From IMG/VR virus record IMGVR_UViG_3300023055_000005: a stretch of DNA of 64,000 bases; one strand, given 5' to 3'. The stretch comes from a virus. Taxonomy: Duplodnaviria > Caudoviricetes. Below, one piece after another: positions 12,530 to 29,688 of this stretch (positions within the stretch are counted from its first letter, which is position 1; the number at the start of each line of letters is the position of its first letter). Made by a program: the position numbers and the translations under genes. Under the pieces are notes generated by a model, which saw only the letters and a program-made list of their open reading frames with translations, did no database searches and was not told the origin of the DNA.

Positions 12530-15500
12530 TTACGGCTTTGCCTGTTCCATCGTGACAACCTTGACGGGCAGACGATGTGCACCATCGGCGTTTGCACGAG
12601 ACAGACGCTTCAGACCATCGAGGATGACCACACGTCCATCTTCCTCACGCACGCCAATCAGCGGGTAGCTGTAGTCGGCACGGGAGACCAGACGCGGAGA
12701 CATCGAGCCAGCCTGATGGAGATTGAAGCGCAAGTCCTTCACTTCAATCAGCTCCGGTTCGAGGGCGTGTGCCGAACGCAGCAGCGGGTTGAGCGGACGA
12801 CTCACAGCATCGTAGAAGTAGACGCGATCATCGGCTTCCTGATAGAGATCAGCGATGGATTCAGTGGAAGCTTCTTCGCCACCTTCCTCCGTCGCCTCAG
12901 CTGCACCAGCATCAGCAGCAGCGTCTTCTTCACCAGTGTCCTCCTGCTCTTCCTCCTGCTGCTCGTCTTCCTGACCCTCTTCAGCGCCTTCATCGGCACC
13001 TTCGTCAGCGCCAGTATCCGTATCAGTACCCAGACCATCGTCCTGAGGCATGCCGGTGTCGTCAGCCGGCGGAGCACCGCCGTCATCCGGAGGCGTTTCA
13101 TCCTGAGGTTCGCGCTTCTCCACCAGCTTCTGGATACGGTCGATGTACTTGCCGAAGACCTTGTACAGCACCTTCATGTGCTCGGCAGCGGACTCGAAGA
13201 TGTTCACCTTGCCCTCTTCGTTCTCGTCCAGCTCCATCAGCTCGAACAGCTCGGGCATGATGTTGTTGGTACGCAGGAACTGACGCAGGTAGAAGGCAGT
13301 GGTCACAGCGACCAGTCCATCAACTGCAGTGGAGATGTCGGTCTGAGAGTCACCACCAGCATCGAACATTTCCTTGCTGATGTAGGCCGGCAGAACTTCA
13401 GCCAGCGCTTCCTTGTACTCCTTGTACGCCTCGACCTGAACCTTGATCTTGGTCGTGTCCGGAGAAGGCAGTTCGCAGATGACAGCGTCGATGAACAGCT
13501 TGACCACGTTGTCGACGTTCAGTTCCTGTCCATGGGAATGGATGTACTGACGGACTTCATCGCCCAGCTTGCCCTTGTTCTCGATGATGATCTTGCGCAG
13601 ACGGTCCAGCAGGGTGCCTGAGTTGTAGGTGTACTTCTGCACGAAGTCAGTGACATGCGGGCAGAACTGTTCCTGCGTCTTCAGCACGCGCTTGGTCAGC
13701 AGCAGGTTGTTGGTCACCGCCGTGGTCGCAAACTCCGGACCCTGGGCGTTGTCCACCATCTCCACCGGGATACCCAGCGACAGCGAGTGGTTCTTGCGCA
13801 GCAGGTTGTCCAGATCCAGATCCGGCTTGTTGACCTGTGCACCGAAGTCCTCGGCGTTGACTTCCGTGTTGGGGTAGCCATCGTTACCACTGACCACCAC
13901 TTCCACACCTGCGTTCTGCAAGAAGGAGATGATGTCCAGCGGGTTGGAGGCGCCCAGCGGGTAAGCCTGCTGACGGTTCTTGGAGAACTCGCCGATGATG
14001 AACTCGACGGTATCCACCGGATCGTCGTCACGCTCATCGAGCTTGATGTTCAGCTTCGTACGACCCACCGAGTTACGCAGCGAACCCATCGTGTTGGCAA
14101 ACATCAAGATTGCACGCATGCCAGCGAGGATCTTGGTGTCTTCCAGCAGCGAACGACCGATGCCGAACTTGTTGTAGTCGATGGCGAAGTAGGTCACCAT
14201 TTCAGCCGGGACGTACACCAGACGCGTGTCCTGGTTGGCCAGGGTACGAGCCAGCATGATCCGGAAGACTTCTTCCGGGCGAGCGATGGTCACGTTGTCA
14301 CCGCATGCACCGGCACGCAGACGAGCCAGCATGGTTTGTTCGACCATGTCCGAGTAGGCACGCTGGAGCGACTCACCGTCGATCTCGTTGTTGCCCTTCA
14401 TGCCGAACGTGCCACGATGCGTCGACTGGATCAGCTGACTGATCATGTCGTTGTTCGCATTCACGTTCTGGTTGAGCTGGTTGAAGTAGTCGTCCTGGGT
14501 GGACTTGTTGACCAGGTGACCCCGTTCATCGCAGACCAGGAAGTAGCCGAGATGATCGGAGGGATCGGACGGTACGAATACCGGGATCACAGCTTCCGAC
14601 GGCGCCTCGATGACCAGCGGGTGACCCTTGGTCTTGGTCTTCAGCTGGTCACGGGTATACAGGGTCTGCACCGGCATCGAAGCGTAACGACGCTGGCTGT
14701 ACAGAGCCGACTGCACCTCCATCAAGGTGGGCTTGCCATCGGTGCCGATGGACTCGGTGGCCACCGCTACCTTGGGCAGATTCAGCAGACCCTTGCGGTT
14801 GTTGCGACGCTTGAGGATGGCATCGCTGCGATGATGAATTGCCGCCTGTGCAAGCGCGGGCATCTTCAGCATCTCCGGGTTGTCGGTAATGAGCAACTTA
14901 CCGGTCTTTTCAGATGCAGCACCGTTGAACGGCTTGAAGACCGGATCGTAGTTCTTCGGACTTGCCGAGGCCTCCATACTGAAGGACTCCATGGCAAAGC
15001 CCACGCCAGCGGCCGTAGAACCACTCTTGGGAGCGTCGGCGCTCGTACCGGCAGGTTGGCCCAGCCAACCCAGCGAGTGCTGTCCTGCGCCTTCCACGGA
15101 CGCCTTGACGGACTCCATGGACGCACGCGTCGGATTGTTGATGACGTCGTCGATCGTGGATTCAGACAGGATGATCATCGGGCGCGAACCACGGTGATAC
15201 AGGATGTCTTCCAGCAATGTCGGAAGTCGGCTGTCAATCTTATAGACTTGCGTGAAGTGGGTAGAAACCACGTCCAACAACATGCCGGAAAGCTCGCTGT
15301 CGAAGATGCCCTCCTGCACACGGTAATTCAGTTTCGAGTTGATCATGTCCTTCGGGGACAGGATCGAGCTGACCATGATCTGCATGTTCAAACGCAGATC
15401 CGGCAACAGCTGCATCAGGTTGGCGGAATCGGTGACGTTGGTCGCCGTATTGTCGCTGAGCTTGGTGAAGAACTGATCACCCGGCAGGTTCACTTCGCGA

Positions 15501-15655
15501 CGACGGAACAGTCCACCGGTCTGGACTTCCCGGTTGGCGTAAACCAACTTGGAGACCACCGAGCCGAGTTGCGGACTCTTCTTCAGAGTCTCAATCTTCG
15601 GCATAGCCTTTCGGCGATCGCTGTCCTTCGGGAAGACGGGCGGCAGGTTGTTCAT
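12530..15655 (-). CDS. Portal protein (phiKZ gp129-like) with acidic linker and C-terminal ParB/Srx-like domain
   Basis: 1041 aa, GGAG RBS. Segments GHPLVIEAPSEAVIPVFVPSDPSDHLGYFLVCDERG, IDYNKFGIGRSLLED and ILMFANTMGSLRNS; N-terminal SMES/AMES/ATES sites; divergent from a large structural gene. Confidence 0.75.
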   Translation of the reverse strand: MNNLPPVFPKDSDRRKAMPKIETLKKSPQLGSVVSKLVYANREVQTGGLFRRREVNLPGDQFFTKLSDNTATNVTDSANLMQLLPDLRLNMQIMVSSILSPKDMINSKLNYRVQEGIFDSELSGMLLDVVSTHFTQVYKIDSRLPTLLEDILYHRGSRPMIILSESTIDDVINNPTRASMESVKASVEGAGQHSLGWLGQPAGTSADAPKSGSTAAGVGFAMESFSMEASASPKNYDPVFKPFNGAASEKTGKLLITDNPEMLKMPALAQAAIHHRSDAILKRRNNRKGLLNLPKVAVATESIGTDGKPTLMEVQSALYSQRRYASMPVQTLYTRDQLKTKTKGHPLVIEAPSEAVIPVFVPSDPSDHLGYFLVCDERGHLVNKSTQDDYFNQLNQNVNANNDMISQLIQSTHRGTFGMKGNNEIDGESLQRAYSDMVEQTMLARLRAGACGDNVTIARPEEVFRIMLARTLANQDTRLVYVPAEMVTYFAIDYNKFGIGRSLLEDTKILAGMRAILMFANTMGSLRNSVGRTKLNIKLDERDDDPVDTVEFIIGEFSKNRQQAYPLGASNPLDIISFLQNAGVEVVVSGNDGYPNTEVNAEDFGAQVNKPDLDLDNLLRKNHSLSLGIPVEMVDNAQGPEFATTAVTNNLLLTKRVLKTQEQFCPHVTDFVQKYTYNSGTLLDRLRKIIIENKGKLGDEVRQYIHSHGQELNVDNVVKLFIDAVICELPSPDTTKIKVQVEAYKEYKEALAEVLPAYISKEMFDAGGDSQTDISTAVDGLVAVTTAFYLRQFLRTNNIMPELFELMELDENEEGKVNIFESAAEHMKVLYKVFGKYIDRIQKLVEKREPQDETPPDDGGAPPADDTGMPQDDGLGTDTDTGADEGADEGAEEGQEDEQQEEEQEDTGEEDAAADAGAAEATEEGGEEASTESIADLYQEADDRVYFYDAVSRPLNPLLRSAHALEPELIEVKDLRFNLHQAGSMSPRLVSRADYSYPLIGVREEDGRVVILDGLKRLSRANADGAHRLPVKVVTMEQAKP

Positions 15656-15699: not shown

Positions 15700-18399
15700 G
15701 TGTCCACTGCGTATTACAAACTTTACGTCGACGATGTCCTTGCGCTGGCGCGCTCGCTGGTTATCAAGTCAGCCAATGCTGCCGAAGCAAGCAATGCGTA
15801 CCTCCGTGAGCTGGGCTACGAAGTACGAGACGAAGATCCCAGCAGCTGGCGCTATTACAAGAACATGGCCGGCGAGTATCATCCAGCAGACAAACCGATG
15901 TATGTCACCTCGCTGGACACGCTTCAAAGAATAGAGTTCACCAAGGAAAGTTTGACAGAGCATCGCGTCACCAAGCGCGAATACTCGCTCCATGGGGACT
16001 ACTACAAGCAGTTGCGTGCCGCCTACCCGCGTCAGGTGAGCCTGATCAACGGTATCCTCAATCCTGTTGACCTCACCGCTGGGTTCACTCCCAACGACGC
16101 TGACAGCGAAAATTTCTCCACGGCTTACAACTGCGCCGACGGTACGATCTTGTACTACGACCCGACGTTGGTGGAGAGCAACGAGCGCAACTTGATCCCG
16201 CAACTGGAGGCATGGCTGCGCCGCGTACTTGTGCGCTGGTTGATCCCCGGCTTCCAGTTGACCGACGACATGTACTTCGGTGCAATGTTTGCGGCAATCG
16301 GTGCGAACATCCCCGGCAAGCTCATGGCGATCCGTGATGGCAATGCGCACACGCGCTATGCCCACAGCTTCCATATCCGTGAGTTCCTGGCCAGCCACGG
16401 CAAGCTGGACACGTTCATCGATACGCTGACCAAGAAGCAGATGCTCTGGCTGTATCGCAACATCCGCTACATCGAGCGCAATCCTGGTAAGCAGGAAACC
16501 TTCGATGACCTGCTACAGAACCTGCTGACCGAACGTGGCATCCCGCTGGCCAAGTGGGACATCCGTCATGATCTGGAAGAACAGCCTGAAGATATCGCCC
16601 CGACTCCGCGTCTGTTCCGTACGGCGCTGAACTTCGGCTTCAACCAGACCGGCGATGATGTACGCACGGTTGGTCGCATGCTCGATGCTGAGCAGCCTGC
16701 GGCAAAGGATAACGCAGCCATCCAGGGCTACGAGGAACCACTGATCATTGAAGCCATTGAAACGGCAGCAATGGACAAGTTCCCGACGAAGGTACTTGAA
16801 TCGGCCATGCTGGATCTGACCGACTCGATGCCTTTCACGCTCTCGGACACGCTGCTCAACCACTGGATCTTCTGGGGCAACAACGAGCGCTACTCGCCTG
16901 TCATCACCGTGCCTGATCCCCGCTCGGGTGAGGGTGTTCGCATGACGGTGCGCAATGCGTTCATCGTTTACCTGTGGGCCTACAACAAGGCTCGTGGCGT
17001 TGACCTGATCCGTCTGCCCAAGCTGGAAGCGCGCCACATCCTGCGTGACCCTGCTCCGCGTCCTTCGGAGCTGTGGACCATCGTGGATCGCAAGTACGTC
17101 AAGGACAACATCGTAGAGGCGCTCTACGCTGGGCACCCGGACATGATTCCTGCCAAGATCATTTCCACCGTGACCTTCTACGAGGCCTGCCAGGACATCT
17201 TCAACTACACCATGCACCAGCGCGACGTTTACGCAGCGCAGGAGCACGAGATGACCCGCGGCATGACCGAGGCGCTTGCGCACCGGTTCTTCTACAACGT
17301 CCCCGTCGACTTCGGCATCAATCTGTACTACGAGGATTGGCTGACCGAGAACAACTACCTGATCCACGACTACAGCGTCCTGGAACTGGATCTGTTGGCT
17401 ACCAACATCCTGCGTGCGGCAACCGGGATGGATAGCACCAACACCAAGTCGGCAAAGGAATTGCAGCAGGCGATGATCTCGCTGATGGAGCAGCTGTCCA
17501 GCTACGCCATCCAGTTCATTTCCTCCATCAACTCCGATGCACTGAAGATGGCAGACTTTGCTGTCATCCGACTGGGCGATGACTACACCTCCGCAGGTGA
17601 CGTCACGGATCTGTCCAAGCTGGCAGTGCGGGTGCTCAGTGCTGACACGTTGGCTCGACATGAAGTTGAGTACGACATGGTCGGGGACATGGTTGAGTTT
17701 GATGTAAGCTCCACCAAGTACCACGAGCTGAGCACTGACATGTCTGTCGGCTTTGAAGGTGGTGTGCAACGCGAGGTCACCGAGAACGTGGATGTTCTCA
17801 ACGTGCGCTTCTCCGTTGTGCAGGAACCGTCCAAGACGCTGGCAAGTCAGATCACCAGGACCACGCTGAGCGCCTTTGCGACCACTGCCCGCTTCACCGC
17901 GGGTAACTATCTCAAAGATGACAGCAACCCGTTGTTGGCAATGCCCAATGGTTGGTCGGTGATTCGCCGCATGAACGATGACAACACCGCAGCAGTGTAT
18001 CCCCATAATGCCACAGTCGCTCGTACGGGTGTGGTGGGTAGCAATGCCAAGGTGCTGGTGACCGCTGTTCCTCCGCGTAACACCGCAGAGCTGGAGCGCT
18101 ACACCGGAGTCATCGAACTGCAACTGCCGCTGTTGGATCTGGCAACGTACTTCACTGGCGCTAACCTGCGTTGGGATGGTAGTGTTCGCCCGATGGACGT
18201 CTACGAGGTTGTGGACTGGCTCAATCGCAAGTACGGCATGGAGCTGTCGCGTGATGAGTTCAACTACGTTGCTATCGCCACCAATGCAACCACGGTGACG
18301 ATGACAGCCTCGGCCAAGAGCATGCGACTGAAGGGGAGTTTCACTGTCCAAATTCCGGCCAGTGGCTTCCTGAGTAAGCTGACTGAAATGTTTGGCTAA
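15700..18399 (+). CDS. Virion structural protein, baseplate-wedge type, with a C-terminal tail-module extension
   Basis: 899 aa, GTG start. MSTAYYKLYVDDVLALARSLVIKS, WRYYKNMAGEYH and HSFHIREFLASHG are typical of the phiKZ-like protein encoded divergently from the portal. Confidence 0.7.
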   Translation: MSTAYYKLYVDDVLALARSLVIKSANAAEASNAYLRELGYEVRDEDPSSWRYYKNMAGEYHPADKPMYVTSLDTLQRIEFTKESLTEHRVTKREYSLHGDYYKQLRAAYPRQVSLINGILNPVDLTAGFTPNDADSENFSTAYNCADGTILYYDPTLVESNERNLIPQLEAWLRRVLVRWLIPGFQLTDDMYFGAMFAAIGANIPGKLMAIRDGNAHTRYAHSFHIREFLASHGKLDTFIDTLTKKQMLWLYRNIRYIERNPGKQETFDDLLQNLLTERGIPLAKWDIRHDLEEQPEDIAPTPRLFRTALNFGFNQTGDDVRTVGRMLDAEQPAAKDNAAIQGYEEPLIIEAIETAAMDKFPTKVLESAMLDLTDSMPFTLSDTLLNHWIFWGNNERYSPVITVPDPRSGEGVRMTVRNAFIVYLWAYNKARGVDLIRLPKLEARHILRDPAPRPSELWTIVDRKYVKDNIVEALYAGHPDMIPAKIISTVTFYEACQDIFNYTMHQRDVYAAQEHEMTRGMTEALAHRFFYNVPVDFGINLYYEDWLTENNYLIHDYSVLELDLLATNILRAATGMDSTNTKSAKELQQAMISLMEQLSSYAIQFISSINSDALKMADFAVIRLGDDYTSAGDVTDLSKLAVRVLSADTLARHEVEYDMVGDMVEFDVSSTKYHELSTDMSVGFEGGVQREVTENVDVLNVRFSVVQEPSKTLASQITRTTLSAFATTARFTAGNYLKDDSNPLLAMPNGWSVIRRMNDDNTAAVYPHNATVARTGVVGSNAKVLVTAVPPRNTAELERYTGVIELQLPLLDLATYFTGANLRWDGSVRPMDVYEVVDWLNRKYGMELSRDEFNYVAIATNATTVTMTASAKSMRLKGSFTVQIPASGFLSKLTEMFG

Positions 18400-18457: not shown

Positions 18458-19504
18458 TTAGGTCAGCGGCTTGGACAGGGTGAAGTGGCCCAGCACACGA
18501 GCGGTGAAGACATCCTTGCGGATGGCCACAGCCGTCGCCGAGACCAGGTTGCCGAACAGGGCTTCCAGGTCCACCAGTGCCTGCAGCTTCAGGCCGTTGG
18601 CGCTGGCCGTCAGTTCGATGTCAGCCACCGACGGTTCGCCTTCGGTCACTTCCTCGCGCAGCAGGTACACGCCTTCTTCGACGTGCATCTTGAGGGTGAC
18701 CTCACGGTCGCCGACAACACGCAGGCGGAAGTCGTACAGGCTGTCGATGGTCGCGCCGTCTTCCAGAGCGACCGGGTTGGCCACTTCGAAGAGCACCATG
18801 TACTTGGTGCCCGGCAGGACTTCGTGGCCGCCGTTGCTCCACTTGACCGGACCGTCCATGTTGGCGCCCACGCCGACGATGGTTTCCTGGTTGGTGCCGA
18901 CTTCGTAGAACACGTGGTCCACGATCGACGGATCCATGTCCGGATTGGTCAGCGACTCGGTGTAGGCGTTGAGCACCTTGCCGATGTGCGAGGGCTTGGC
19001 GGTCGGGTACTGGAAGCCGCGCAGCGTGGTGTGGGTGACGTAGCTCGGCAGCATGATCTTTTCAGCGATCAGCTCGACGGTCATTTCACCCAGGTAGACG
19101 TACGAACCCGGCTTGGCGCGCAGGGTCAGCGTGCCCGAGCCGAACTCGCCCGGATAGTCGCCGATGACTTCGACGTCGGTCGGTTCCAGCTGCAGGCCGT
19201 ATTCGGCGTTGATCGCATCCAGCAGCGTGGCGTCGCTGATGACTTCCTTGGCGGAGAACTCGACTTCCTGGTCGATGAACATGCGGTCCAGGAACAGGCG
19301 CTCGAAGCGCGTGGTGACCGGACCGTACCAGTAGCTGGTCGGCGAAGCGGTGACAGTACAAGCGGTATTGCGCTCGTCCTGGTTCAGGCTCAGCTGCACC
19401 GGAGCTGCGAAGATCAGCTCATCGAAGGTGAAGGTGGCGTCGTTGTCATCATTGATCAGGTCCAGGAGGAGTTCCTTGCCCGGCTTGTTCAAGTAATCGA
19501 TCAT
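18458..19504 (-). CDS. Tail tip/adhesin paralog 1 (phiKZ gp131-135-like family)
   Basis: N-terminal KELLLDLINDDN…RLFLDRMF…INAEYGLQLE…LPSYVTHTTLRGFQYP module. Confidence 0.75.
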   Translation of the reverse strand: MIDYLNKPGKELLLDLINDDNDATFTFDELIFAAPVQLSLNQDERNTACTVTASPTSYWYGPVTTRFERLFLDRMFIDQEVEFSAKEVISDATLLDAINAEYGLQLEPTDVEVIGDYPGEFGSGTLTLRAKPGSYVYLGEMTVELIAEKIMLPSYVTHTTLRGFQYPTAKPSHIGKVLNAYTESLTNPDMDPSIVDHVFYEVGTNQETIVGVGANMDGPVKWSNGGHEVLPGTKYMVLFEVANPVALEDGATIDSLYDFRLRVVGDREVTLKMHVEEGVYLLREEVTEGEPSVADIELTASANGLKLQALVDLEALFGNLVSATAVAIRKDVFTARVLGHFTLSKPLT

Positions 19505-19581
19505 TTCTAGGTGCCTTTTCTGGGTGGAGCGGGGATGAGGAGACGCTCACATGATTCGCAAGCGGGGACTACTTTCTGGTG

Positions 19582-20739
19582 TTAGACGTAGAAGTTGACC
19601 GGGAAGTCGATGAAGAAGTCCGGCTTGTTCGGGTTGCGGCGATGCTTCAGCTTCAGGCGGAAGATCATTGCGCCACCGCGATACCACGAGGTCGAACCAC
19701 CGCCGGTAGCCGAGATGTAGTTGACACCAGCCTGCGTACGAGCCACATGCGGGTAGGAACCAGCAGCCGGCTGAGCGCCCAGCCCCACAGCCATGGAAAC
19801 GCGGAAGGTGGCGGCGGGGGTGATGGTGGTACGCAGCGGATAGAGCAAACCGGAGTCGCTCTTGAACGGTGCGGAGGTTCCGACCTGATCAGCCAGGGAC
19901 AACTTCATTTCCGGACCCACGCCAGCTGCGCCGATCTCGATGATGCTGACGTCGTAGTCTTCCAGGATCTGCGAGTTCTTCAGAGCAACGCCATCCTTGG
20001 ACGCGGTGACCGTCACGGCTGCAGTGGAGGAGCCCTGGTTGCTATAACGCCAGGCCATCTGTCGCACGCCATCGGCGCGGTCCAGTACCTGATACGGCGT
20101 CTGCGGGCGAACGTTGCCACCCATGTCCAGCTCGATCGACAACTTCAGATCACCATAGTCCTTGATGAACGAGTTGTAGAAAGTACTGCCGGCCTGCCGT
20201 GTGGCGGTGGTCTGGATCGGATTGTTCGGCGAGGGGATATCGCTGTTCGGATAACCGAAGCCGTCCAGATCCGTGACCAGGAGGCGTGCCGCCAAGGGCA
20301 TGCGTTCCAGATCAACGAAGACGTCGAATTCGCCAGTGTAGGCGAGATTGTCAGCCTTGGCCTTGACCTTGTAAAGTTCCGGGAGATCGCCGTCTTCTTG
20401 GGGGATGACGTCAAACTCACGCACATCAAACTTCGTCCCGTAGGTGAAGTTGAGGTGGCAGATGATATCCGAAGCAGTCGCGCCCTTGGGGACAGACACT
20501 TCGGCCATCTGGCCGCTGAACACCGTGAGCAGATCGAGTCGGGAGAAATCGACATCGACGTCACGGTTCCAGGGTGAATCAGGCGCGGCCTTCAGGTTGA
20601 GCAGGGTGTTGCCTTCAGCAGCACCACCTTCGGGAAGTCCGAAGATCAACTGATCTTCGGAGATCTCGGTCTCGTTCTCCTGATTGACGAGGTCAAGGAT
20701 CAACTCCTTGCTCGTCTTGGCCAGGGGACAGACTTCCAT
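19582..20739 (-). CDS. Tail tip/adhesin paralog 2
   Basis: MEVCPLAKTSKELILDLVN…ERMPLAARLLVTDLDGFGYP; AGGAGAG RBS. Confidence 0.8.
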   Translation of the reverse strand: MEVCPLAKTSKELILDLVNQENETEISEDQLIFGLPEGGAAEGNTLLNLKAAPDSPWNRDVDVDFSRLDLLTVFSGQMAEVSVPKGATASDIICHLNFTYGTKFDVREFDVIPQEDGDLPELYKVKAKADNLAYTGEFDVFVDLERMPLAARLLVTDLDGFGYPNSDIPSPNNPIQTTATRQAGSTFYNSFIKDYGDLKLSIELDMGGNVRPQTPYQVLDRADGVRQMAWRYSNQGSSTAAVTVTASKDGVALKNSQILEDYDVSIIEIGAAGVGPEMKLSLADQVGTSAPFKSDSGLLYPLRTTITPAATFRVSMAVGLGAQPAAGSYPHVARTQAGVNYISATGGGSTSWYRGGAMIFRLKLKHRRNPNKPDFFIDFPVNFYV

Positions 20740-20772
20740 CAAACTCTCCTACTACTTAAAACGTGGAGGGGA

Positions 20773-21888
20773 TCAGCGGAACGCGGTACGCGTCACGACG
20801 ATTTCCTTGGAGCGCTTAGTCTTGTGCTTACCACGCAGGGTAGCGATCAGCAAGCCGGTCGTACCAGCACTACCGCCGCCGCCACTGCCGCGGGACATGC
20901 CCAGGGTGATCATGCGCGGCTGGATATGGTTCTGAGCGGCCTGGCTGAAGTCCCACTCGAAGTTGAAGCCGGCCGTGGAGCGATAGCCGGCGAGCGTGCC
21001 GCCAGTGACGTCCATGCCGAGCGTGACGCCTTCCCCCTGCCAGGCAACCTGGCCATTGGGCTGAACCACCGGAAGCAGCGTGACCTTACCGCGAGTGGAG
21101 GCCATCTCCAGGGAGAAATCGTACTCGGCCATCAGCTGGACAAGCGAGCGCTGATCGCTGGCCGTGACAGCCGCCACCAGATGCGGGAAGCGATAGCTGC
21201 CGCTGCCGACGGGACTGCCCACGCCCAACGCTGCGCCTTGCGGATCACCGCTGACCATCGTCGGGTAGTTGACCGGGAAACCGCGCACTTCGATTTCCAG
21301 CTTCACATCGCCGTTGTCACCGAAGCGGTTCTGCAGGTTGTTGACGATCGGGCTGTCGGTGTAGATGACGTTGTTCATCGACGGGACGTCAGCGTTCGGA
21401 TAGTGGAAGCCATCCAGATCGGTCTGTAGGATACGCGCAGCCAGTGGCATGCGCTCCAGGTCCACGAACAGCGGGAACTCGCCGGTGTAGGCCAGGTTGT
21501 TGGGCAGAGCGCGCAGCTTGTACGGCTCGGGGATGCCGCCGTCTTCCTGCGGCAGCAGTTCGAACTCATCCACCTTGAACGACATGTCGTAGGTGAAGTT
21601 GAGGTGACAGATGATGTCAGCCGCCGTGGCGTCCTTGGGCACCGACACCGACACGTCCTGACCGGCGAACAGCGTTGCCAGATCCAGACGATCGTAGACG
21701 ACATCGACGAAGGAGTTCCAGGGGGAATCCTCGGCCGCGGCTACGTTCAGACCCGTGTTGCCATCTTCCGTGCTGGCAGTGGGGAGGCCGAAGACCAGCT
21801 GCTCTTCGGTGATGGTGGAACCGTTCTCGGAGTTGATCAGTTCGAGGATCAATTCCTTACCGGGTTTTGCAAGAGGACAGACGTCCAT
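20773..21888 (-). CDS. Tail tip/adhesin paralog 3
   Basis: MDVCPLAKPGKELILELIN…ERMPLAARILQTDLDGFHYP. Confidence 0.8.
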   Translation of the reverse strand: MDVCPLAKPGKELILELINSENGSTITEEQLVFGLPTASTEDGNTGLNVAAAEDSPWNSFVDVVYDRLDLATLFAGQDVSVSVPKDATAADIICHLNFTYDMSFKVDEFELLPQEDGGIPEPYKLRALPNNLAYTGEFPLFVDLERMPLAARILQTDLDGFHYPNADVPSMNNVIYTDSPIVNNLQNRFGDNGDVKLEIEVRGFPVNYPTMVSGDPQGAALGVGSPVGSGSYRFPHLVAAVTASDQRSLVQLMAEYDFSLEMASTRGKVTLLPVVQPNGQVAWQGEGVTLGMDVTGGTLAGYRSTAGFNFEWDFSQAAQNHIQPRMITLGMSRGSGGGGSAGTTGLLIATLRGKHKTKRSKEIVVTRTAFR

Positions 21889-21982
21889 CTAAGTACCTGC
21901 TGTGGTGGGTGAAGCGTGGAGAGATTAACCGGTGGACCTTCCTTGGTCCTAGGTATGGGCGGGTAAGAACGAGGTGATGCTA

Positions 21983-23143
21983 TCAGACCGCGGTGGCGGC
22001 AGCCTGGATTTCCAACGTCTTGGCACGACCAGCCTTGCGAACTGCCCAGAGACGGTACTCCATCATGCCGGTCAGTTTGGTCGAACCCTGGCTCAGTCCC
22101 GGCCAGATGTTGGTGTTGCGATCAAGCGACATCGCATGCGTGCCATCACGCGGAACAGTGGTGAAGGCCCCGCGACCGAAGTTGTTGGGTCCATCGACCT
22201 GCCAGAAACCAGCCGTGTTGTAGTTCGAGGCGCCGGGAACATCACTGTCACGACGGTACTTGAAGGTACGAACCTGCCACTGTTGAGAGGCACTCGCGCG
22301 CGAGCGAGTTTCCATGAAGACATCGTAGTCTTCGATCAGCTCGACCACCGTCTTGCCGACGTAACGCAGGCCGACGAGCACGTTCCAGCTGGCTGCCTGC
22401 GTCAGGTTGCCATTGGTCTCCTGCCAGGTGGTAAGACGACGCGGTTCGCCGGCAGGCCCGTACTTGACGCCGATCGGGTAACGCGATTGCTGCCAGCCGC
22501 CGTTGGTATTGGAGGTACGCAGACCCAGGACAACCTCGGAGTTCTCACCACGATCGTAGCCGAGCTTGTTGTCCTGAGCGCCGCCATCATTCCACGCGCC
22601 GTCGACGTCCTTGAAGAACACCGGGTTGTTCAGCGACGGGCGGTCAGCGTTGGGGTACATGAAACCATTCAGATCCGTCTGCAGGATACGAGCCGAGAGC
22701 GGCATCCGTTCCAGATCGACGAACACATCGAAGGTGCCGCCGTAGGCCAGGTTGTTGTCGAGGGCTTCGACCTTGTACAACTCGGGCAGGTCGCCGTCTT
22801 CGACCGGCGTCACCTTGAACTCGGTAACGTCGAACTTGGTGCCGTAGGTGAAGTTCAGATGACAGATGATGTCAGCCGGCGTTGCGCCCTTCGGAACGGA
22901 GATCTCTGCGCGTTCACCATGGAACAAGGTGTTCAGGTCGAGACGATCGTAGTCCACGTCCACGAAGCTGTTCCACGGCGAATCGGGCGCCGCGGTAAGA
23001 TTCAGTCGGGTGTTCTGCTCGGAATCGGTGGACTGCGGTTCACCGAAGATGAGCTGCTCTTCGGTAATCGCCGAGGCGTTCTCGGCATTCACCAGTTCGA
23101 GGATCAGCTCCTTGCCAGTTTTGGCAAGAGGACAAACTTCCAT
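21983..23143 (-). CDS. Tail tip/adhesin paralog 4
   Basis: MEVCPLAKTGKELILELVN…ERMPLSARILQTDLNGFMYP; GGAG RBS before the ATG at 23143. Confidence 0.8.
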   Translation of the reverse strand: MEVCPLAKTGKELILELVNAENASAITEEQLIFGEPQSTDSEQNTRLNLTAAPDSPWNSFVDVDYDRLDLNTLFHGERAEISVPKGATPADIICHLNFTYGTKFDVTEFKVTPVEDGDLPELYKVEALDNNLAYGGTFDVFVDLERMPLSARILQTDLNGFMYPNADRPSLNNPVFFKDVDGAWNDGGAQDNKLGYDRGENSEVVLGLRTSNTNGGWQQSRYPIGVKYGPAGEPRRLTTWQETNGNLTQAASWNVLVGLRYVGKTVVELIEDYDVFMETRSRASASQQWQVRTFKYRRDSDVPGASNYNTAGFWQVDGPNNFGRGAFTTVPRDGTHAMSLDRNTNIWPGLSQGSTKLTGMMEYRLWAVRKAGRAKTLEIQAAATAV

Positions 23144-23155
23144 CAGATTCTCCAA

Positions 23156-25111
23156 TTACGCGAGTGGATTGGTGCGGAGGTTGAATTCCATGTACAGAGG
23201 CTGTCCGCCCTTCTTCGGGGTCAGGGTCATCTTGACAACAACGAGCCCATGAACACGAGTGTAGGTGGTGCCGTTTGCGGTCTGCTGCCAGCGCGCCATG
23301 CCGGGGAACCAGGCATTGTTGGGAGACGGTGCCACCGAGATGGTGACCGCCGCAGCCGTATCCGGCGTAGGCAGGGTAACGATCTGACTACCGACAACAG
23401 CGCCGTTCTGGTCCAGGAACTGCAAGATACGCGGTGCCGCCGGATCAGCACGCATGGTGCCGGACTTGATGGTCGGCTGAATACCCGCCTGACCCGAGGA
23501 GAACTCCCACGTACCGTCGTACTCGTCAAGGACCATCTGCGCATTGAACGGCTGGTTCTTGCGAGTGGACGCCATGCCGAAGACGATGAGCAGACTCTGG
23601 ACAGGCGCTACGGCCGACTTCGCCTGATCGTAGGTGTGGTAGGTGATCGACTCATTGCCAGACAGGGTATTGCGCAAGTCTGAGCGGTTGACACTTTCAC
23701 CAGCGAGTTGAATCGTTCTGCGGCCGAACGTGTACAACATCACCTTGCCGTCGTCAACGGTCTTGCCGCCCCGCAGATACAGTGCGTTGTTGGCAGGGGT
23801 GGTGTGACCCGTCATGCCCAGCATGTTCTGACGATCGCCCCATGCAGGATTCTCGTCAATGACGATACCCACCTCAGGCGTTGTACGGAACTTGTACTCC
23901 AGACGAATCGGATCGGCCGGACCTTCCTTGCGAACCATCTCCAGGACCATCTTGCCGCGGCCACGGACTCGCGTGGTGATCACAGAGTTGACAGTCTTGG
24001 AGATCGACCGCATGGCGGGAAGGGGCTCAGCGGGACCGGGGTAGAAGTCCGCCATGAGGTATCTGCCACCCTGCGCATTGGTACGCCCGGAACCCTGACG
24101 ACGCGCGGCACCGGCGGCTGCGGTGGCCGCATCCGGTACGATGAAGAAAGAGTCAGCGCGATTCGGATCAACAGCGAGCGTGTAGACGCAGGTGACCTCG
24201 TCGTAGCCATGATGGGAACTGACAGTCGTCAACTTGATGTCGTACAGATCCAACAGTTCACTGGCGGTAGCCAGAGTGGTGGTACGATCAGCATGCATGA
24301 AACCGATACTGGGGAACATGCCGCCGCGAGGCGTGTTGGTGTACGCGTCGGGTTGTTCGACGATGTACTCGCCAGTCTCCTCATCGAAGGCATGCTTGAA
24401 GTTGGTGAAGTTCCGCGTCACGTCCTGACCAGGAACCCACTTCGCAGCGCCCACGGCAAGGAAGGCTTCGAACTCACCATTATTGGCAGTGACAAAACCA
24501 CTCATCCAACCCTGTTCCTGCTGCGCAGCCGGCGGCGGCGAATAGGAACCAATGGAAAGGAACCCACGGTAGTCGCTATTGCTGTCGTAGTACACGTTGG
24601 TCAGGGTGGGCGGGCGATACGGGTAGCGGAACCCGTTGAGGTCAGTGACCAGCAGTCGAGCCGACAGAGGCATCCGCTCCAGATCCACAAAGAGATCGAA
24701 GGCGCCCGTGTAAGCCAGATTGTCGTCCTTGGCAGTGATGCGGTAGACCTCAGGGAGATCCCCGTCCTCGATGGGCGTCACTACGAACTCGTTGACGTCG
24801 AACTTCATCCCGTAGGTGTAGTTCAAGTGACAAACGATATCCGAAGGAGTGGCACCTTTGGGTACGGAGATCTCCGGGCGTCCTGCGCCGAATACAACAC
24901 CCAGGTCCAATCGGGTGTAGTCGAGATCAACAGAGTTGTTCCACGGTGCATCGGGAGCAGCGGCGAGATTGAGGGTCGTGTTGCCCTCAGCTGCGCCGTC
25001 TTCAGCAGTGCCGAAGATCAACTGCTCCTCTGCAATCGTGGTCTCGTTGGTCTCGTTGACCAAGTCAAGGACAAGCGCCTTGCTGGTTTTTGCGAGAGGA
25101 CAGACCTCCAT
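23156..25111 (-). CDS. Tail tip/adhesin paralog 5, with two C-terminal domains
   Basis: 651 aa; same N-module; two LxxYD and terminal RKxG-type motifs indicate a tandem duplicated C-domain. Confidence 0.8.
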   Translation of the reverse strand: MEVCPLAKTSKALVLDLVNETNETTIAEEQLIFGTAEDGAAEGNTTLNLAAAPDAPWNNSVDLDYTRLDLGVVFGAGRPEISVPKGATPSDIVCHLNYTYGMKFDVNEFVVTPIEDGDLPEVYRITAKDDNLAYTGAFDLFVDLERMPLSARLLVTDLNGFRYPYRPPTLTNVYYDSNSDYRGFLSIGSYSPPPAAQQEQGWMSGFVTANNGEFEAFLAVGAAKWVPGQDVTRNFTNFKHAFDEETGEYIVEQPDAYTNTPRGGMFPSIGFMHADRTTTLATASELLDLYDIKLTTVSSHHGYDEVTCVYTLAVDPNRADSFFIVPDAATAAAGAARRQGSGRTNAQGGRYLMADFYPGPAEPLPAMRSISKTVNSVITTRVRGRGKMVLEMVRKEGPADPIRLEYKFRTTPEVGIVIDENPAWGDRQNMLGMTGHTTPANNALYLRGGKTVDDGKVMLYTFGRRTIQLAGESVNRSDLRNTLSGNESITYHTYDQAKSAVAPVQSLLIVFGMASTRKNQPFNAQMVLDEYDGTWEFSSGQAGIQPTIKSGTMRADPAAPRILQFLDQNGAVVGSQIVTLPTPDTAAAVTISVAPSPNNAWFPGMARWQQTANGTTYTRVHGLVVVKMTLTPKKGGQPLYMEFNLRTNPLA

Positions 25112-25126
25112 CTTTGTTTCCTCAGA

Positions 25127-26305
25127 TTACTGCGCGAAGAGCGCGGTGCGATAGATCAGTTCGATCGGCTTGGCCAGGCCTTTCTTGCGAGTTGCGGTGA
25201 GCTTGAAGGTCACCATACCCGTGCAGCAAGCCGGTCGCTGCGTCGTGCCAGGGATAGCCATGGTGGATGCTGTCAAGCTACCGAACATGCCGGTCGGCGT
25301 GTAGGGGATACCGATGGTCGCTTCATAGCCAGTGACGCCGTTCTGAATCTTCTGGACCAGGTCGATACGCTGGCCGTCAGTGAACTCGACCCGCAGCCTG
25401 GTCCCAAACCGAATGACCTTACTGCTGCGGATGACGCCGCCGCCACCATTCAAGGCGCTCACGGTCATTTCCATCGCAATGTCGTAGCCGTCGAGCAGAT
25501 GTTCAAAATTGCCCTGTTCAGCCTTGAGCCCCATGAAGAGGCTAAGTACTGGCGCGTTGCGATAGATCGTGTTGTTGTACAGTGCGCCCGTGCTTGTGCA
25601 GGTGTAGTACGGAGGGTTTGCGCTGGCGGAGTAACCAGCCGCCTGGAAGATGGCGGCGTTGTTCGTCGATGCCGACCAGCTGGAACGACCGCCCATGAAC
25701 ATTTCATCGTTCTCGGCGATTTCGAACCCATTCCGATTGCCAGTGGGCATGTGGCCAAACGCCCACGTTGCGGGCATGGTTTTGTTGTGAGAGACGACGA
25801 CGTCACCACCGGCATTGTAGCCGAAACCATTCAGATCGGTCACCGTCAGTCGAGCCGACAGGGGCATGCGATTGAGGTCTGCAAAGACATCGACCGAACC
25901 GATGTAGGCCATGTTGCCAGCTTTCGCCGTAACCTTGTAAAGTTCCGGCAGCTCACCATCCTCCTGGGGAACAACGTCGAATTCATTGACGTCAAACTTC
26001 AGGTCGTAGGTGAAATTGAGATGACAGATGAGATCGGCGGCGGTAGCACCTTTGGGCAGGGACACCTCCGCGCGCTCGTTGTGGAACAACGTGCCCAGAT
26101 CGAGACGATCGTAGGACGTATCCACAAACGAGTTCCAGGGCGCGTCAGGCGCTGCCGTGAGGCGGAGGGCAGTGTTACCGCCTTCCAGGCTCTCTTCCAC
26201 TTCGCCAAAGATCAACTGCTCTTCGGCGATATTGCTCGAATTCTCCTGGTTGACCAGATCGAGTACGAGCAGTTTGCTGGGCTTTGCCAACGGGCAAACG
26301 TCCAT
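25127..26305 (-). CDS. Tail tip/adhesin paralog 6
   Basis: MDVCPLAKPSKLLVLDLVN…NRMPLSARLTVTDLNGFGY; AAGGAGAA RBS. Confidence 0.8.
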   Translation of the reverse strand: MDVCPLAKPSKLLVLDLVNQENSSNIAEEQLIFGEVEESLEGGNTALRLTAAPDAPWNSFVDTSYDRLDLGTLFHNERAEVSLPKGATAADLICHLNFTYDLKFDVNEFDVVPQEDGELPELYKVTAKAGNMAYIGSVDVFADLNRMPLSARLTVTDLNGFGYNAGGDVVVSHNKTMPATWAFGHMPTGNRNGFEIAENDEMFMGGRSSWSASTNNAAIFQAAGYSASANPPYYTCTSTGALYNNTIYRNAPVLSLFMGLKAEQGNFEHLLDGYDIAMEMTVSALNGGGGVIRSSKVIRFGTRLRVEFTDGQRIDLVQKIQNGVTGYEATIGIPYTPTGMFGSLTASTMAIPGTTQRPACCTGMVTFKLTATRKKGLAKPIELIYRTALFAQ

Positions 26306-26315
26306 GGTCTTCTCC

Positions 26316-27518
26316 TTACGATGCGATGGCGTCGGTGATGATCTCAATCACCTTGGCGCGGCCGGTCTTGCGGGTCAGGGTCAGCTTGGTCTTGATCTGA
26401 CCGCGGTAGATCGACATGTTCGTCCCGTTGACAGTCGTATTGGTGACCCGCATGCCGGGGAACAGCGCTTGGTTGCTGCTGTCGGTCCGGAACTTGTAGG
26501 TGGTCTTACCCGACCCGGAGTTGCTCAGGTTGCCGATGACGACGCCGGTATCCTTGTTGACCAGACGCAGGCGCGTGGCATCGGTGGGCAGGTATTCGAC
26601 CCGGCACGTAACCTTCTTCTCGCCCGAGCCATTCGGGAACGCCGTCGTGACCTCCAGTTCGACATCGTAACCCTCCAGGATATCCTGGAACTTGTTCTGC
26701 TCGGCGGTCAGCTGGAAGCCGAAGGCAACCTGCCAGCTTCGAGCATAACCGAAGTTACTGTGCGAACCGGTGGCGGTACTGATCGGGTAGACGCCATCTG
26801 CATTCGGGTCAACGCCAGTGCCGCCGGTGGTATCCCAGCCACCCCTGGTATTGAAGGCACGCACGAACGCCACCACCTCGCCGTTCTTGGCGAAGTTGAA
26901 ACCCTTGCGGTTGTCGGCGATGCCGCTCGAAACAATGGCCGCAAAATGACCATCCGGAGCCAGGGCATTGCGTTCGAAGATGATGTTGTTCAGGGACGGC
27001 GTGTTGGCGTTCGGATAACCGAAGCCATCCAGATCCGACTTGGTCAGGCGGTCGCTCAGCGGGGAGCGGGTCAGGTCCAGGAACAACGCCACCTGGCCGA
27101 TGTAGCCCAGCGAGTTGGGCACCGCCTTCAGGACGAACTCACCGGGGATATTGTCGGCCGACGGAGCCGGGGAGATTTCCATCTCCAGGTTGGAAAGACG
27201 CGTGTCGTACTCGGCATTGATGCGCGAGATGATGTCTTCCTTGGAGGCGCCCTTGGGCACTGCCAGCTCGACCCCGCCACCGAAGTAGCGATTCAGGTCG
27301 CGGCGATGGTAGTCGACCTTGACGCTCTTGTTCCAGGGGGCATCCGGATCGGCGATGACTTCGGTACGAGTGTTGGCGTCGCTGCCTTCGATCGGTTCGG
27401 CCAGACTGTTGGGCAGGCCGAAGTCGATCTGCTCGCGCTCGATCGTACTTTCGTTTTCACTGTTGATCAGATTCAGCAACAACTTGTCGCTGGTCTGAGG
27501 CTGTTCATTTTCGCTCAT
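26316..27518 (-). CDS. Tail tip/adhesin paralog 7
   Basis: SDKLLLNLINSEN…TRSPLSDRLTKSDLDGFGYP; GGAG RBS. Confidence 0.8.
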   Translation of the reverse strand: MSENEQPQTSDKLLLNLINSENESTIEREQIDFGLPNSLAEPIEGSDANTRTEVIADPDAPWNKSVKVDYHRRDLNRYFGGGVELAVPKGASKEDIISRINAEYDTRLSNLEMEISPAPSADNIPGEFVLKAVPNSLGYIGQVALFLDLTRSPLSDRLTKSDLDGFGYPNANTPSLNNIIFERNALAPDGHFAAIVSSGIADNRKGFNFAKNGEVVAFVRAFNTRGGWDTTGGTGVDPNADGVYPISTATGSHSNFGYARSWQVAFGFQLTAEQNKFQDILEGYDVELEVTTAFPNGSGEKKVTCRVEYLPTDATRLRLVNKDTGVVIGNLSNSGSGKTTYKFRTDSSNQALFPGMRVTNTTVNGTNMSIYRGQIKTKLTLTRKTGRAKVIEIITDAIAS

Positions 27519-27567
27519 TTGAACGACTCCATTAGTGGGCTGAGTGGATTGATCGTATCCCTCCTAG

Positions 27568-27613
27568 GACATAGGATTGGTCTTTATAAAACGACGCCAC
27601 CCAATCTTATGGC
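27568..27613. promoter_or_regulatory. Divergent putative late-promoter pair (TATG on each strand) in an inverted repeat
   Basis: CATAGGATTGG (27570-27580) and CCAATCTTATG (27601-27611) lie between divergent genes. Confidence 0.45.
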
Positions 27614-27669
27614 TACCACGAAAACATCAACTCATTGATGCTTTCTTTTCCCCTTAACGGAGTCCTTGC

Positions 27670-28752
27670 ATGCATAGCCAGCCTCCCTTCCCACGCGGTG
27701 GCAATCAGCCCCCTGGGAACTTTCCGGATCAAGACAGTTGGAGCGCGGCCCCGCCGGTACATGGACGTCGGCCTCCTGCACATGGTCACCACGATCCGCA
27801 CAATCATGGCCACTCGCACCCGCGCCCTGATCACCGGCACTACGAGCATTTCCCGCATCAGCATCGCCACCCTGAAGCGTGGCAGTGCCCCGAGCCGATC
27901 TTCCCGTACAACAAACCGGGCAAGCATGTCCTGATTGATCTGATCAACCGGGCCAACGAAACCGACTTCTCTCCTGATCAGCTTGAACTGAGTGCACCGG
28001 CCGCACTTGGCAACACGCTGACCCAGGTGCACATCACCCCGACGCAGAAGACCGGGTGGTGCAGCAGCGATACCTTCACCTACCATCGCATGTTGATGGA
28101 GGCGTATCTGGGCAAGACCCACATCAACCTGCATGTGGACGCCCGGATGACCAAGGAAAGCGTCGCCCAAGCCATGCGTGATCGTTACCGCATCTGGCTG
28201 GACATGGAAGACTTCGACGTGGACTTCTCCAACTGCCCGCCGAGTTGGCTGCAGCGTGGTCATTTCCTCGCGCGCCTGCGCTTCCGTCCGAACTGCCTGG
28301 TGTGGATCGGTGCAATGGAAGTGGTCCTGATCCCGGACAATCGTCTCAGTGCGATGATCTGCGTCACCGATCTTTCCGGCTTCATCTATCCAGACCATCT
28401 CGGTGGACAGGGTCGCAAGCAACTGGCCGAGTCGTACTACCAGGATTTGGAAGGCACCATCCTCTTCCAAAACCTGTTGAAGTATCGTGTCGGTGAACCG
28501 GTGCGTACCCACGACGGCAAGTGGCGCGATGGCACGCGACTGACTGGCGACTTCTGGATCTCTTCCCCGCAGGAAGTTGAGTTCAATGTCTCCGGCGCTC
28601 GCATCCTGTACAACGGTCGCAATGATGGTCCGTGGCACTGCGGCTGTGATGACTACAGCCATGTACTGGTGATCGAGCTTGGCCCGCTGTGCAAGAACCT
28701 GCGCGGCAAGCTGGTCATCCCCTACGACGTGCGTCGTGAGAAGCCTTACTAA
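27670..28752 (+). CDS. Tail paralog 8 with His/Pro-rich N-terminal extension
   Basis: YNKPGKHVLIDLINRAN…LSAMICVTDLSGFIYP module preceded by a region with 15 His in 67 aa; GGAG RBS. Confidence 0.75.
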   Translation: MHSQPPFPRGGNQPPGNFPDQDSWSAAPPVHGRRPPAHGHHDPHNHGHSHPRPDHRHYEHFPHQHRHPEAWQCPEPIFPYNKPGKHVLIDLINRANETDFSPDQLELSAPAALGNTLTQVHITPTQKTGWCSSDTFTYHRMLMEAYLGKTHINLHVDARMTKESVAQAMRDRYRIWLDMEDFDVDFSNCPPSWLQRGHFLARLRFRPNCLVWIGAMEVVLIPDNRLSAMICVTDLSGFIYPDHLGGQGRKQLAESYYQDLEGTILFQNLLKYRVGEPVRTHDGKWRDGTRLTGDFWISSPQEVEFNVSGARILYNGRNDGPWHCGCDDYSHVLVIELGPLCKNLRGKLVIPYDVRREKPY

Positions 28753-28827: not shown

Positions 28828-29688
28828 GTGAAAATCATTACCCGTACTGGCTACGGCTGCCTGCGTCAGACCGAGCTGCTGATCGGCAAGCCCTACAAGG
28901 CGCTGCCCAACAGCACACTCAACGAGAAGTTCGAAGTACAGGCCAACGTGGTCCCCGAAGCTGGCAAGATACCCTACCTTGGCTACTACAGCATCGGTCA
29001 GGGTGGTCACCGCAACGAGACCGGCGCCGATGGCTTCCCGCTGACCAGCCCGATCGACCATCGTCCCACCGACGCTGGCCTGTTCCGCTTCCTGCCGTTC
29101 GTCTTGCGTGAGCTGACCAACGACCTGGACAGCGGCGCCCGCAGTCGCTATGCGATGCGCAAGATCATCCAGGTGGATGGCCGCAACTACGTGGCGTACT
29201 ACCTGAAGAAGATCCCGATGGACTCGGTGTCCCCGGACATCTACTACAACCGTGTGGTCGATGGTCAGGTCACCACGACCCCGTTCCGTCCGGACAACAG
29301 CAACCTCAACCCGACCCCGCCGGAGATCCCCAACACCGGCACCGTCACCACCTCGGGCGACTACCTGTCCGTGTCGGCGATCCTGCCGCTGGACTTCACC
29401 GCCAACGACGTGGCCGAGCTGGTCAACGCGATCCGCATCCTGTACAAGGACGAGCGTTACGCGGTGATCTCGGAAATCGCCATGGTCACTGCATCGGCCA
29501 AGGTTGTCACCGGTCCGGGTCCGGGTAACACCACGATCCAGTACGAAGAAGCAGTGGCTGCACAGATCGCCGCCCACATGACCGGCCACTACCCGGTGGG
29601 CTTCACCAACATGGGCTTCAACCTGAAGGTGAACCTGGGCGCGACCGAGCCGATGTTCAAGCCGTCGGCTGTTACCACCGGTAACTAA
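28828..29688 (+). CDS. Virion structural protein (phiKZ gp139-like, baseplate region)
   Basis: GTG start; TRTGYG…PNSTLNEKF…YYSIGQGGH…LFRFLPFVLRELTNDL…NYVAYYLKKI…YAVISEIAMVTA. Confidence 0.7.
   Translation: MKIITRTGYGCLRQTELLIGKPYKALPNSTLNEKFEVQANVVPEAGKIPYLGYYSIGQGGHRNETGADGFPLTSPIDHRPTDAGLFRFLPFVLRELTNDLDSGARSRYAMRKIIQVDGRNYVAYYLKKIPMDSVSPDIYYNRVVDGQVTTTPFRPDNSNLNPTPPEIPNTGTVTTSGDYLSVSAILPLDFTANDVAELVNAIRILYKDERYAVISEIAMVTASAKVVTGPGPGNTTIQYEEAVAAQIAAHMTGHYPVGFTNMGFNLKVNLGATEPMFKPSAVTTGN

Follow-up and report, generated by a model that had tools for sequence, protein, structure and literature searches.

In this work, a tandem array of genes encoding DUF7941-family proteins was analyzed in a 64,000-nucleotide (nt) stretch of DNA (hereafter, the window) from the IMG/VR virus record IMGVR_UViG_3300023055_000005 (Duplodnaviria; Caudoviricetes). 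The array, located at positions 18458-28752, probably encodes modular subunits of outer-baseplate fibres with predicted host-binding C-terminal domains; a probability of about 0.6 is assigned to this reading. Six of its genes share a private beta-sandwich C-terminal domain (C-domain) in seven copies, and the conserved N-terminal modules (N-modules) and the C-domains have evidently been re-paired by recombination at the hinge that joins them during the divergence of sister phages.

The window covers bases 86334-150333 of a virus record that is complete (234,278 bp) and has direct terminal repeats. The sole named close relative is the Xanthomonas phage Xoo-sp14, with which half of the array can be aligned at 81% nucleotide identity and the flanking collinear blocks at ~86%. 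Xoo-sp14 has been listed among the chimalliviruses, that is, nucleus-forming phiKZ-like jumbo phages (preprint 10.1101/2024.03.21.585822). Judging by this relationship, the window phage is likewise a chimallivirus, a giant Xanthomonas phage related to Xoo-sp14. The array is surrounded by homologues of phiKZ gp128, gp129, and gp139 and by a match to the phage polymerase family phrog_2943. The Xoo-sp14 proteins (L001) were excluded from all fold and profile analyses described below.

According to the coordinates of the open reading frames (ORFs), the array consists of seven tandem minus-strand genes separated by gaps of 10-94 bp and one divergent plus-strand gene (Table 1), as an earlier note made from the sequence alone had described. 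All eight genes belong to the DUF7941 family: the Pfam profile DUF7941 (PF25613) was passed by 8/8 proteins with scores of 76-173 bits versus the cut-off of 27. Profile positions 3-176 are covered by the tandem genes (to 191 in paralog 4 and to 180 in paralog 6), and positions 3-275 of 276, essentially the full length of the profile, by paralog 8. In addition, all eight proteins match the PHROG families 1037 and 2935, for which the label "virion structural protein" is an annotation only. The alignment and the DUF7941 scores agree with the proposal of the note that all eight proteins share an N-module of ~160 aa with a terminal hinge. The hinge contains the invariant L...L-x-G-F-x-Y and takes the form [ED/N]RMPL[AS]AR..(x)TDL[DN]GFxY in paralogs 2-6. 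Among themselves, the N-modules of paralogs 2-6 show 58-73% identity; that of paralog 7 is ~41-46% identical to them, and those of paralogs 1 and 8 are ~23-32% identical.

As for the C-terminal sequences, a search of the phage genome with the C-domain profile found matches in exactly seven places, all of them in the array and two of them within paralog 5. The elements conserved in the C-terminal alignment of paralogs 2-7 and their relatives are PNAxxPSLNN at the start, NGE, L[ED]xYD with its YD invariant, PG, one invariant G, and RKxGxAKxxE in the terminal hairpin. The note had attributed one C-domain family, recognizable by the LxxYD anchor and in most cases by the terminal hairpin, to all seven tandem genes. 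This attribution was confirmed for genes 2-7 (6/7 genes, seven copies) and did not extend to gene 1: the C-terminal 180 aa of paralog 1 show no detectable relation to the main family (hhalign probability 1%), and for this reason its "DSLYD" cannot be taken for an instance of that anchor. The AlphaFold2 (AF2) model of paralog 1, based on a five-sequence alignment, had a predicted local distance difference test (pLDDT) value of 52, which is too poor to decide on a shared fold. The C-domains of paralog 5 gave two separate profile matches (E 2e-62 and 5e-62), each with the LxxYD anchor and the terminal hairpin; therefore, the suggestion that this protein carries two such domains holds. The C-terminal part of paralog 8 is unrelated to the array C-domain in the hhalign comparison and represents the canonical DUF7941 C-terminal part according to Pfam.

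The C-domain is rare: among 1.84 billion representative proteins searched exhaustively with its profile, 22 matched at E <=1e-3. The inspected matches were DUF7941 fusions of this phage clade, with the exception of a spurious match and two proteins, 765 and 771 aa in length (the latter is P0031). Each of these two proteins lacks any Pfam match and contains three tandem array-type C-domains behind a different, non-DUF7941 N-terminus; thus, the C-domain is an autonomous module that is uncatalogued in family libraries. The gene of the 765-aa protein (L006 10001-12298, Logan SRR25456185) is located on an unrelated 72-kb contig, ~5.5 kb from genes encoding a collagen-like tail fibre and a minor-tail-like protein. 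The spurious match, the tetratricopeptide repeat protein P0027, was rejected as a C-domain relative, being detected via its repeated AGYDLALEV motif.

The array of the window (W) was compared with the corresponding loci of Xoo-sp14 (X; L001), a 230-kb IMG/VR genome (Y; L002), a truncated IMG/VR contig (Z; L003), and two Logan contigs, the distant A (L008) and B (L009). Copy number and content vary among these sister phages: W and X have seven tandem genes, Y and A have six, and the interior of the array differs, with paralogs 1, 7, and 8 kept in position in every locus that covers them. Paralog 1 adjoins the wedge gene in the five relatives in which that end is seen, and the gene next to it carries a C-domain of type cC in W and Y, cB in X, and cD in Z. 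The comparison of the N- and C-terminal parts bears out the design of a constant module with a diversified C-domain. The orthologues of paralog 1 in close relatives are 88-89% identical in the N-module and 69-71% in the C-terminal part (63% and 21%, respectively, in the distant L008), and paralog 3 is an orthologue of Xoo-sp14 gene 130 with identities of 88% and 67%. The orthologues of paralog 8 are 90-98% identical.

Paralog 2 has no positional orthologue in Xoo-sp14, and its C-domain recurs in the L002 gene Y2 behind a different N-module. Paralogs 4 and 6 are mosaics relative to Xoo-sp14. The N-module of paralog 4 is 85% identical to that of Xoo-sp14 gene 131, and its C-domain is nearest to those of gene 132 (37%) and the L003 gene Z2 (87%). 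Similarly, the N-module of paralog 6 is 89% identical to that of the double-domain Xoo-sp14 gene 134, and its C-domain is nearest to that of gene 133 (42%). The search for recombination breakpoints at the hinge that the note had proposed gave a positive result: high-identity blastn collinearity with Xoo-sp14 ends at position 22671 in paralog 4 and at position 25823 in paralog 6, 16 nt and 6 nt from the hinge boundary, respectively.

Based on sequence identity, five cases of one N-module type combined with different C-domain types were found. The N-type of W3, X130, and Y2 carries cB in W and X and cC in Y; that of W2 and Z2 carries cC in W and cD in Z; that of W4, X131, Y4, and B4 carries cD in W and cE in the others. 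The N-type of W6, X134, and Y6 is followed by a single cG in W and by a double domain in X and Y, and that of X133, Y5, and B5 by cG in X and by another type in Y and B. The maximum-likelihood trees built for the two parts, N-modules and C-domains, from six related phages contained conflicting, fully supported clades. In approximately unbiased (AU) tests, the N-module clades were rejected on the C-domain data (p 1e-5, 2e-8, 6e-38, and 1e-4), and the C-domain clades were rejected on the N-module data (p 8e-150, 0.008, 3e-76, and 1e-6). In L008, three N-modules are mutually closest (100/100 support), and each of their C-domains is of a different old type; this pattern indicates either homogenisation of N-modules within the genome or repeated replacement of C-domains.

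The ratio of nonsynonymous to synonymous substitution rates (dN/dS) was 0.33-0.55 in the C-domains versus 0.15-0.29 in the N-modules for 4/5 orthologous pairs, and 0.21 versus 0.16 for the closest pair, W7-Y7. For paralog 8, it was 0.05-0.10 in both parts. By these values, the C-domains change in protein sequence two to three times faster than the N-modules.

The structure of paralog 7 was modelled with AF2 using a 23-sequence alignment (mean pLDDT 82.6). The model contains an alpha/beta N-terminal domain (NTD; aa 1-150), the hinge (aa 151-170, pLDDT ~50) between two confident domains, and an all-beta C-domain with a long terminal hairpin (aa 175-400, pLDDT ~90). This order of NTD, flexible linker, and C-terminal globular part fits the DUF7941 layout. 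The modelled NTD matched chain 9xqd_0 of the phiKZ outer peripheral baseplate, with a VIA Z score of 9.7 (root-mean-square deviation 3.2 A, 133 aa aligned) and a Foldseek probability of 1.0 (template modelling (TM) score 0.64 by target). A 150-residue chain of the phiKZ outer-baseplate structure has been identified as the NTD of gp127, for which the entry is printed as 9QXD (bioRxiv 10.64898/2026.04.21.720040); the printed code is taken to be the same entry as 9xqd. The predicted fold of the array NTD is that of phiKZ gp127 in the baseplate, and the modelled C-domain is a rare immunoglobulin-like (Ig-like) beta-sandwich with no specific known relative. Fold searches in BFVD and AFDB found DUF7941 N-domains of other jumbo phages only and gave no informative C-domain match. 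A complex prediction for two copies of paralog 7 scored 0.00; it was run without controls and is uninformative on hinge-NTD docking either way.

The closest described system is that of the phage Goslar, whose virions contain ten DUF7941 paralogs (gp22, gp23, gp31, gp33, gp34, gp86, gp91-93, and gp161), two DUF7941 proteins being present at ~580 and 2140 copies (bioRxiv 10.64898/2026.04.21.720040). According to the same preprint, purified gp22 forms filaments, the linker of one protomer docks on the NTD of the next in AlphaFold predictions, and three paralogs carry C-terminal carbohydrate-binding, hydrolase, or leucine-rich repeat (LRR) domains; the model published there is head-to-tail copolymerisation into baseplate filaments, termed the "DUF7941 fibre cloud". 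The likeness to the window array includes the Pfam family, the many paralogs per chimallivirus genome, the genes adjoining a gp139/DUF7208 homologue, the order of a globular N-terminal domain, a flexible linker, and a C-terminal part that varies, and the proposed host recognition from the peripheral baseplate. Unlike the Goslar genes, the seven genes of the window form one tight tandem block, and six of them carry a private Ig-like C-domain and not a carbohydrate-binding module, glycoside hydrolase, or LRR. The gp22-type canonical C-terminal part occurs in the window array only in paralog 8, and the wedge protein of the window phage carries a fused N-module. Hinge-centred reassortment among sister phages is not described in the Goslar preprint.

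For phiKZ, the note had pointed to the gp131-135 family as a smaller counterpart of the array. This comparison proved to be one of analogy and not of homology, since gp131-135 lack DUF7941 and have their homologues elsewhere in the window. Pfam finds DUF7941 in phiKZ gp126 and gp127 and weakly in gp143, and none in gp129-135. The hidden Markov model (HMM) of the N-module matched gp126, gp127, and gp143 at E 5e-7 to 3e-6, versus E 0.5 or worse for gp130-135 (0.5-1.2 for gp131-135). As a set of paralogs with shared N-terminal and differing C-terminal parts at the baseplate periphery, as far as described in Sycheva 2012 via PMC13250141, and in their similar genomic slot, gp131-gp135 resemble the array, but they are not homologous to its DUF7941 genes; they form a hetero-hexameric fibre base (PMC13250141). 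The gp126, gp127, and gp143 proteins are homologous to the array proteins by Pfam and by the N-module HMM, and share with them the NTD fold match and the structural neighbourhood of gp128 and gp139. They differ in being three small members, none with the array C-domain, and in being encoded on the other side of gp128. The gp131-135-like genes of the window are separate from the array and thus give this phage a second baseplate fibre system. Each of the two large gp131-135-like genes has five to six matches to a gp133 segment of ~80-100 aa, suggestive of an internal repeat.

A comparable principle is known for the multi-tailspike sets of CBA120-like and K1/K5-type phages, in which a conserved N-terminal anchor is combined with exchangeable C-terminal domains. 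These sets share with the array an attachment module, recombination at its boundary, and several specificities per virion. They consist of trimeric beta-helix spikes on branched adaptors, and their folds and attachment chemistry differ from those of the array proteins, which appear to be monomeric, two-domain beads equipped with a donor hinge.

Further DUF7941 modules were found outside the array. The note had counted eight copies; the whole genome holds eleven modules, three of them outside the eight. One is a hinge-less N-module at the C-terminus of the homologue of the phiKZ wedge protein gp128; it was detected by Pfam DUF7941 (36.8 bits at aa 778-885) and by PHROG 1037/2935. This fused module is a candidate acceptor or anchor site. 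The wedge homologue has a C-terminal extension of ~200 aa that is lacking in phiKZ gp128 (724 aa), and the L008 relative retains the extension, with a weak DUF7941 match on its 886-aa protein. The other two modules are encoded just upstream of the window. The 180-aa protein consists of an NTD only, like phiKZ gp126. The 384-aa protein (P0032) combines an N-module with the hinge variant VLNGLKYP and a P0030-type C-domain, 27-28% identical to the P0030 repeats (BLAST E 5e-21); its match to the array C-domain profile is weak (hhalign probability 2%), and the kinship rests on the BLAST similarity to the P0030 repeats. In the phiKZ atlas, gp128 is the wedge protein, and five gp139 dimers form a band outward from gp128 that ends at gp127 (PMC13250141); gp127 is itself a DUF7941 protein according to Pfam. 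Since the gp128 and gp139 homologues flank the array, it lies between genes whose phiKZ counterparts link the wedge to a DUF7941 protein.

Under the preferred reading, the constant alpha/beta N-domain and the flexible conserved hinge (PL..R...TDL.GF.YP) would attach each protein to the virion. The likely mode is docking of the hinge, as a donor, on the N-domain of another DUF7941 module, as an acceptor, in the way proposed for Goslar gp22/gp23, and the first acceptor may be the DUF7941 N-domain fused to the adjacent wedge protein. The variable Ig-like C-domain would face outward at each junction and contact the host surface, so that a single virion would simultaneously display several binding specificities. 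A receptor-binding C-domain is supported indirectly, in that it evolves faster than the N-module, is exchanged as a module, has a kin protein encoded near tail-fibre genes, and belongs to proteins predicted to be located at the peripheral baseplate. A more detailed scheme, which is tentative and on balance doubtful, is that the wedge-fused N-domain primes six filaments per baseplate, to which at least nine hinge-bearing paralogs add head-to-tail, giving a stochastic multi-specific fibre cloud; homogenisation of the N-modules would keep the paralogs cross-compatible, and recombination at the hinge would swap their binding domains.

Several observations weigh against the preferred reading. The C-domain fold matches were generic Ig-like sandwiches, the best of them an unrelated Ig-like domain with a VIA Z score of 7.9. 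The Foldseek matches to the fimbrial adhesins and pilins CfaE, CooA, and FimH were weak (E 4e-4 to 1e-2, TM <0.4), and the fold searches identified neither a ligand-binding site nor a known adhesin family for the C-domain. Positive selection is not shown, as dN/dS averages below 1. The C-domain types represent old lineages that persist in the distant L008, which also fits fixed structural roles; the reading does not account for the distinct C-terminal part of paralog 1, and no virion proteomics for this phage or Xoo-sp14 was found in the literature.

A strict form of the interpretation favoured in the earlier note, that the paralogs are alternative tips competing for a limited number of identical docking sites, with individual virions differing in their tips, is considered unlikely. 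It agrees with the nearly identical hinge of paralogs 2-6, with the single hinge-less acceptor module on the wedge protein, and with the similarity of N-modules within a genome, which are monophyletic for three L008 genes and would stay interchangeable. However, each paralog has its own N-domain, a possible acceptor for another hinge, and the published model is a copolymer filament, the subunits of which number hundreds to thousands per virion (bioRxiv 10.64898/2026.04.21.720040); under head-to-tail copolymerisation, the paralogs would co-assemble and not exclude each other. In addition, the distinct hinges and N-modules of paralogs 1, 7, and 8 (25-46% identity to paralogs 2-6) suggest distinct partners. 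It is also rather improbable that the paralogs are fixed bricks of the peripheral baseplate, like phiKZ gp126/gp127, with Ig-like C-domains serving in assembly or stabilisation. Such a role would be consistent with the overall purifying selection, the generic fold, the conservation of C-domain types and of the positions of paralogs 1, 7, and 8 even in L008, and the description of phiKZ gp127 as a defined component of each star-lobe complex (PMC13250141). The variable number of tandem genes (six or seven), the lack of a counterpart of paralog 2 in Xoo-sp14, and the related triple-domain protein encoded in a cluster with tail-fibre genes argue otherwise, and the repeated re-pairing of N- and C-terminal parts, including the replacement of a single domain by a double one, is hard to fit to unique lock-and-key slots.

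A programmed change of the expressed tip within a population, by a diversity-generating retroelement (DGR), a shufflon, or cassette switching, is very improbable. The only feature that recalls such a system is the overall appearance of variable cassettes behind a constant part. No RVT_1 match (reverse transcriptase) and no Resolvase-family match (serine recombinase; tyrosine recombinases were not searched for) was found in the complete genome, in agreement with the opinion of the note that the array is neither a DGR nor a shufflon. Near-identical repeat pairs were absent; the copies of N-module DNA are only 60-72% identical, which bears out the divergence noted earlier, and inverted repeats are limited to <=26 nt at 79-88% identity. 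All eight genes (8/8) are intact and have start codons of their own. Among the 24 contigs read with an identical paralog 1, the neighbour proteins are the same in 23; the other contig represents this genome cut at a different point. As the array is constant across the contigs of the strain, the variation is, to the extent that consensus assemblies reveal it, between lineages and not within a lysate.

The coordinates of the array genes, of their parts, and of the other genes discussed are given in Table 1. The leader of paralog 8 is rich in His, Pro, and Gly and may be metal-binding or disordered; it is retained in Xoo-sp14, L002, and L009, where the protein is always 360 aa long, whereas the L008 protein (380 aa) has a longer leader. 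A scan for sigma-70 promoters and terminators showed nothing exceeding chance.

Table 1. Coordinates of the array genes, their parts, and other genes of the phage. Positions are those of the window unless another locus is named.
Feature	Position	Strand	Length (aa)	Parts and matches
Paralog 1	18458-19504	minus	348	N-module and hinge 19007-19504; own C-domain 18458-19006; Pfam 114 bits
Paralog 2	19582-20739	minus	385	N-module 20251-20739; C-domain type cC 19582-20250
Paralog 3	20773-21888	minus	371	N-module 21400-21888; C-domain type cB
Paralog 4	21983-23143	minus	386	N-module 22655-23143; C-domain type cD
Paralog 5	23156-25111	minus	651	N-module 24623-25111; two tandem C-domains
Paralog 5, C-domains	23876-24622 and 23165-23854	minus		aa 164-412 and aa 420-649
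Paralog 6	25127-26305	minus	392	N-module 25817-26305; C-domain type cG
Paralog 7	26316-27518	minus	400	N-module 27015-27518; C-domain type cH; protein modelled
Paralog 8	27670-28752	plus, divergent	360	Pfam DUF7941 173 bits, full length
Paralog 8, parts	27670-27894; 27895-28389; 28390-28752	plus		leader (75 aa, aa 1-75); N-module and hinge; canonical DUF7941 C-terminal part
Portal, phiKZ gp129 homologue	12530-15655	minus	1041	tblastn 32% identity over 784 aa
Wedge, phiKZ gp128 homologue	15700-18399	plus	899	tblastn to phiKZ gp128 35% identity, aa 2-652, E 1e-125
Wedge, hinge-less N-module	17974-18360	plus		aa 759-887
DUF7208 protein, phiKZ gp139 outer-baseplate band homologue	28828-29688	plus		Pfam 345 bits; tblastn 39%, E 3e-64
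gp131-135-like fibre gene	39283-42489	minus		
gp131-135-like fibre gene	42547-44814	minus		
phiKZ gp130 homologue	44928-46172	plus		
Two extra DUF7941 genes	G000:C1:82519-84832 (L007 4520-6833)		180 and 384	just upstream of the window

In a public assembly collection, 67 blocks index an identical paralog-1 protein, and 44 of these blocks have contigs of 0.2-1 Mb; therefore, this uncultured phage strain is widespread in sequenced samples.

The DUF7941 family and the logic of multiple paralogs with variable C-termini were already published in 2026, when DUF7941 fibres were first proposed to be a host-recognition device specific to chimalliviruses. The new details are the tandem arrangement with a C-domain family of its own, the reassortment documented at the hinge, and the wedge-fused module. 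The re-pairing marks the hinge as a functional module boundary, and the wedge-fused acceptor module is a possible anchor of the fibre. Sister phages with the same attachment module and different C-domains represent a natural experiment that predicts which domains would determine host range, and knowing the host-range genes may be of practical use for Xanthomonas biocontrol phages.

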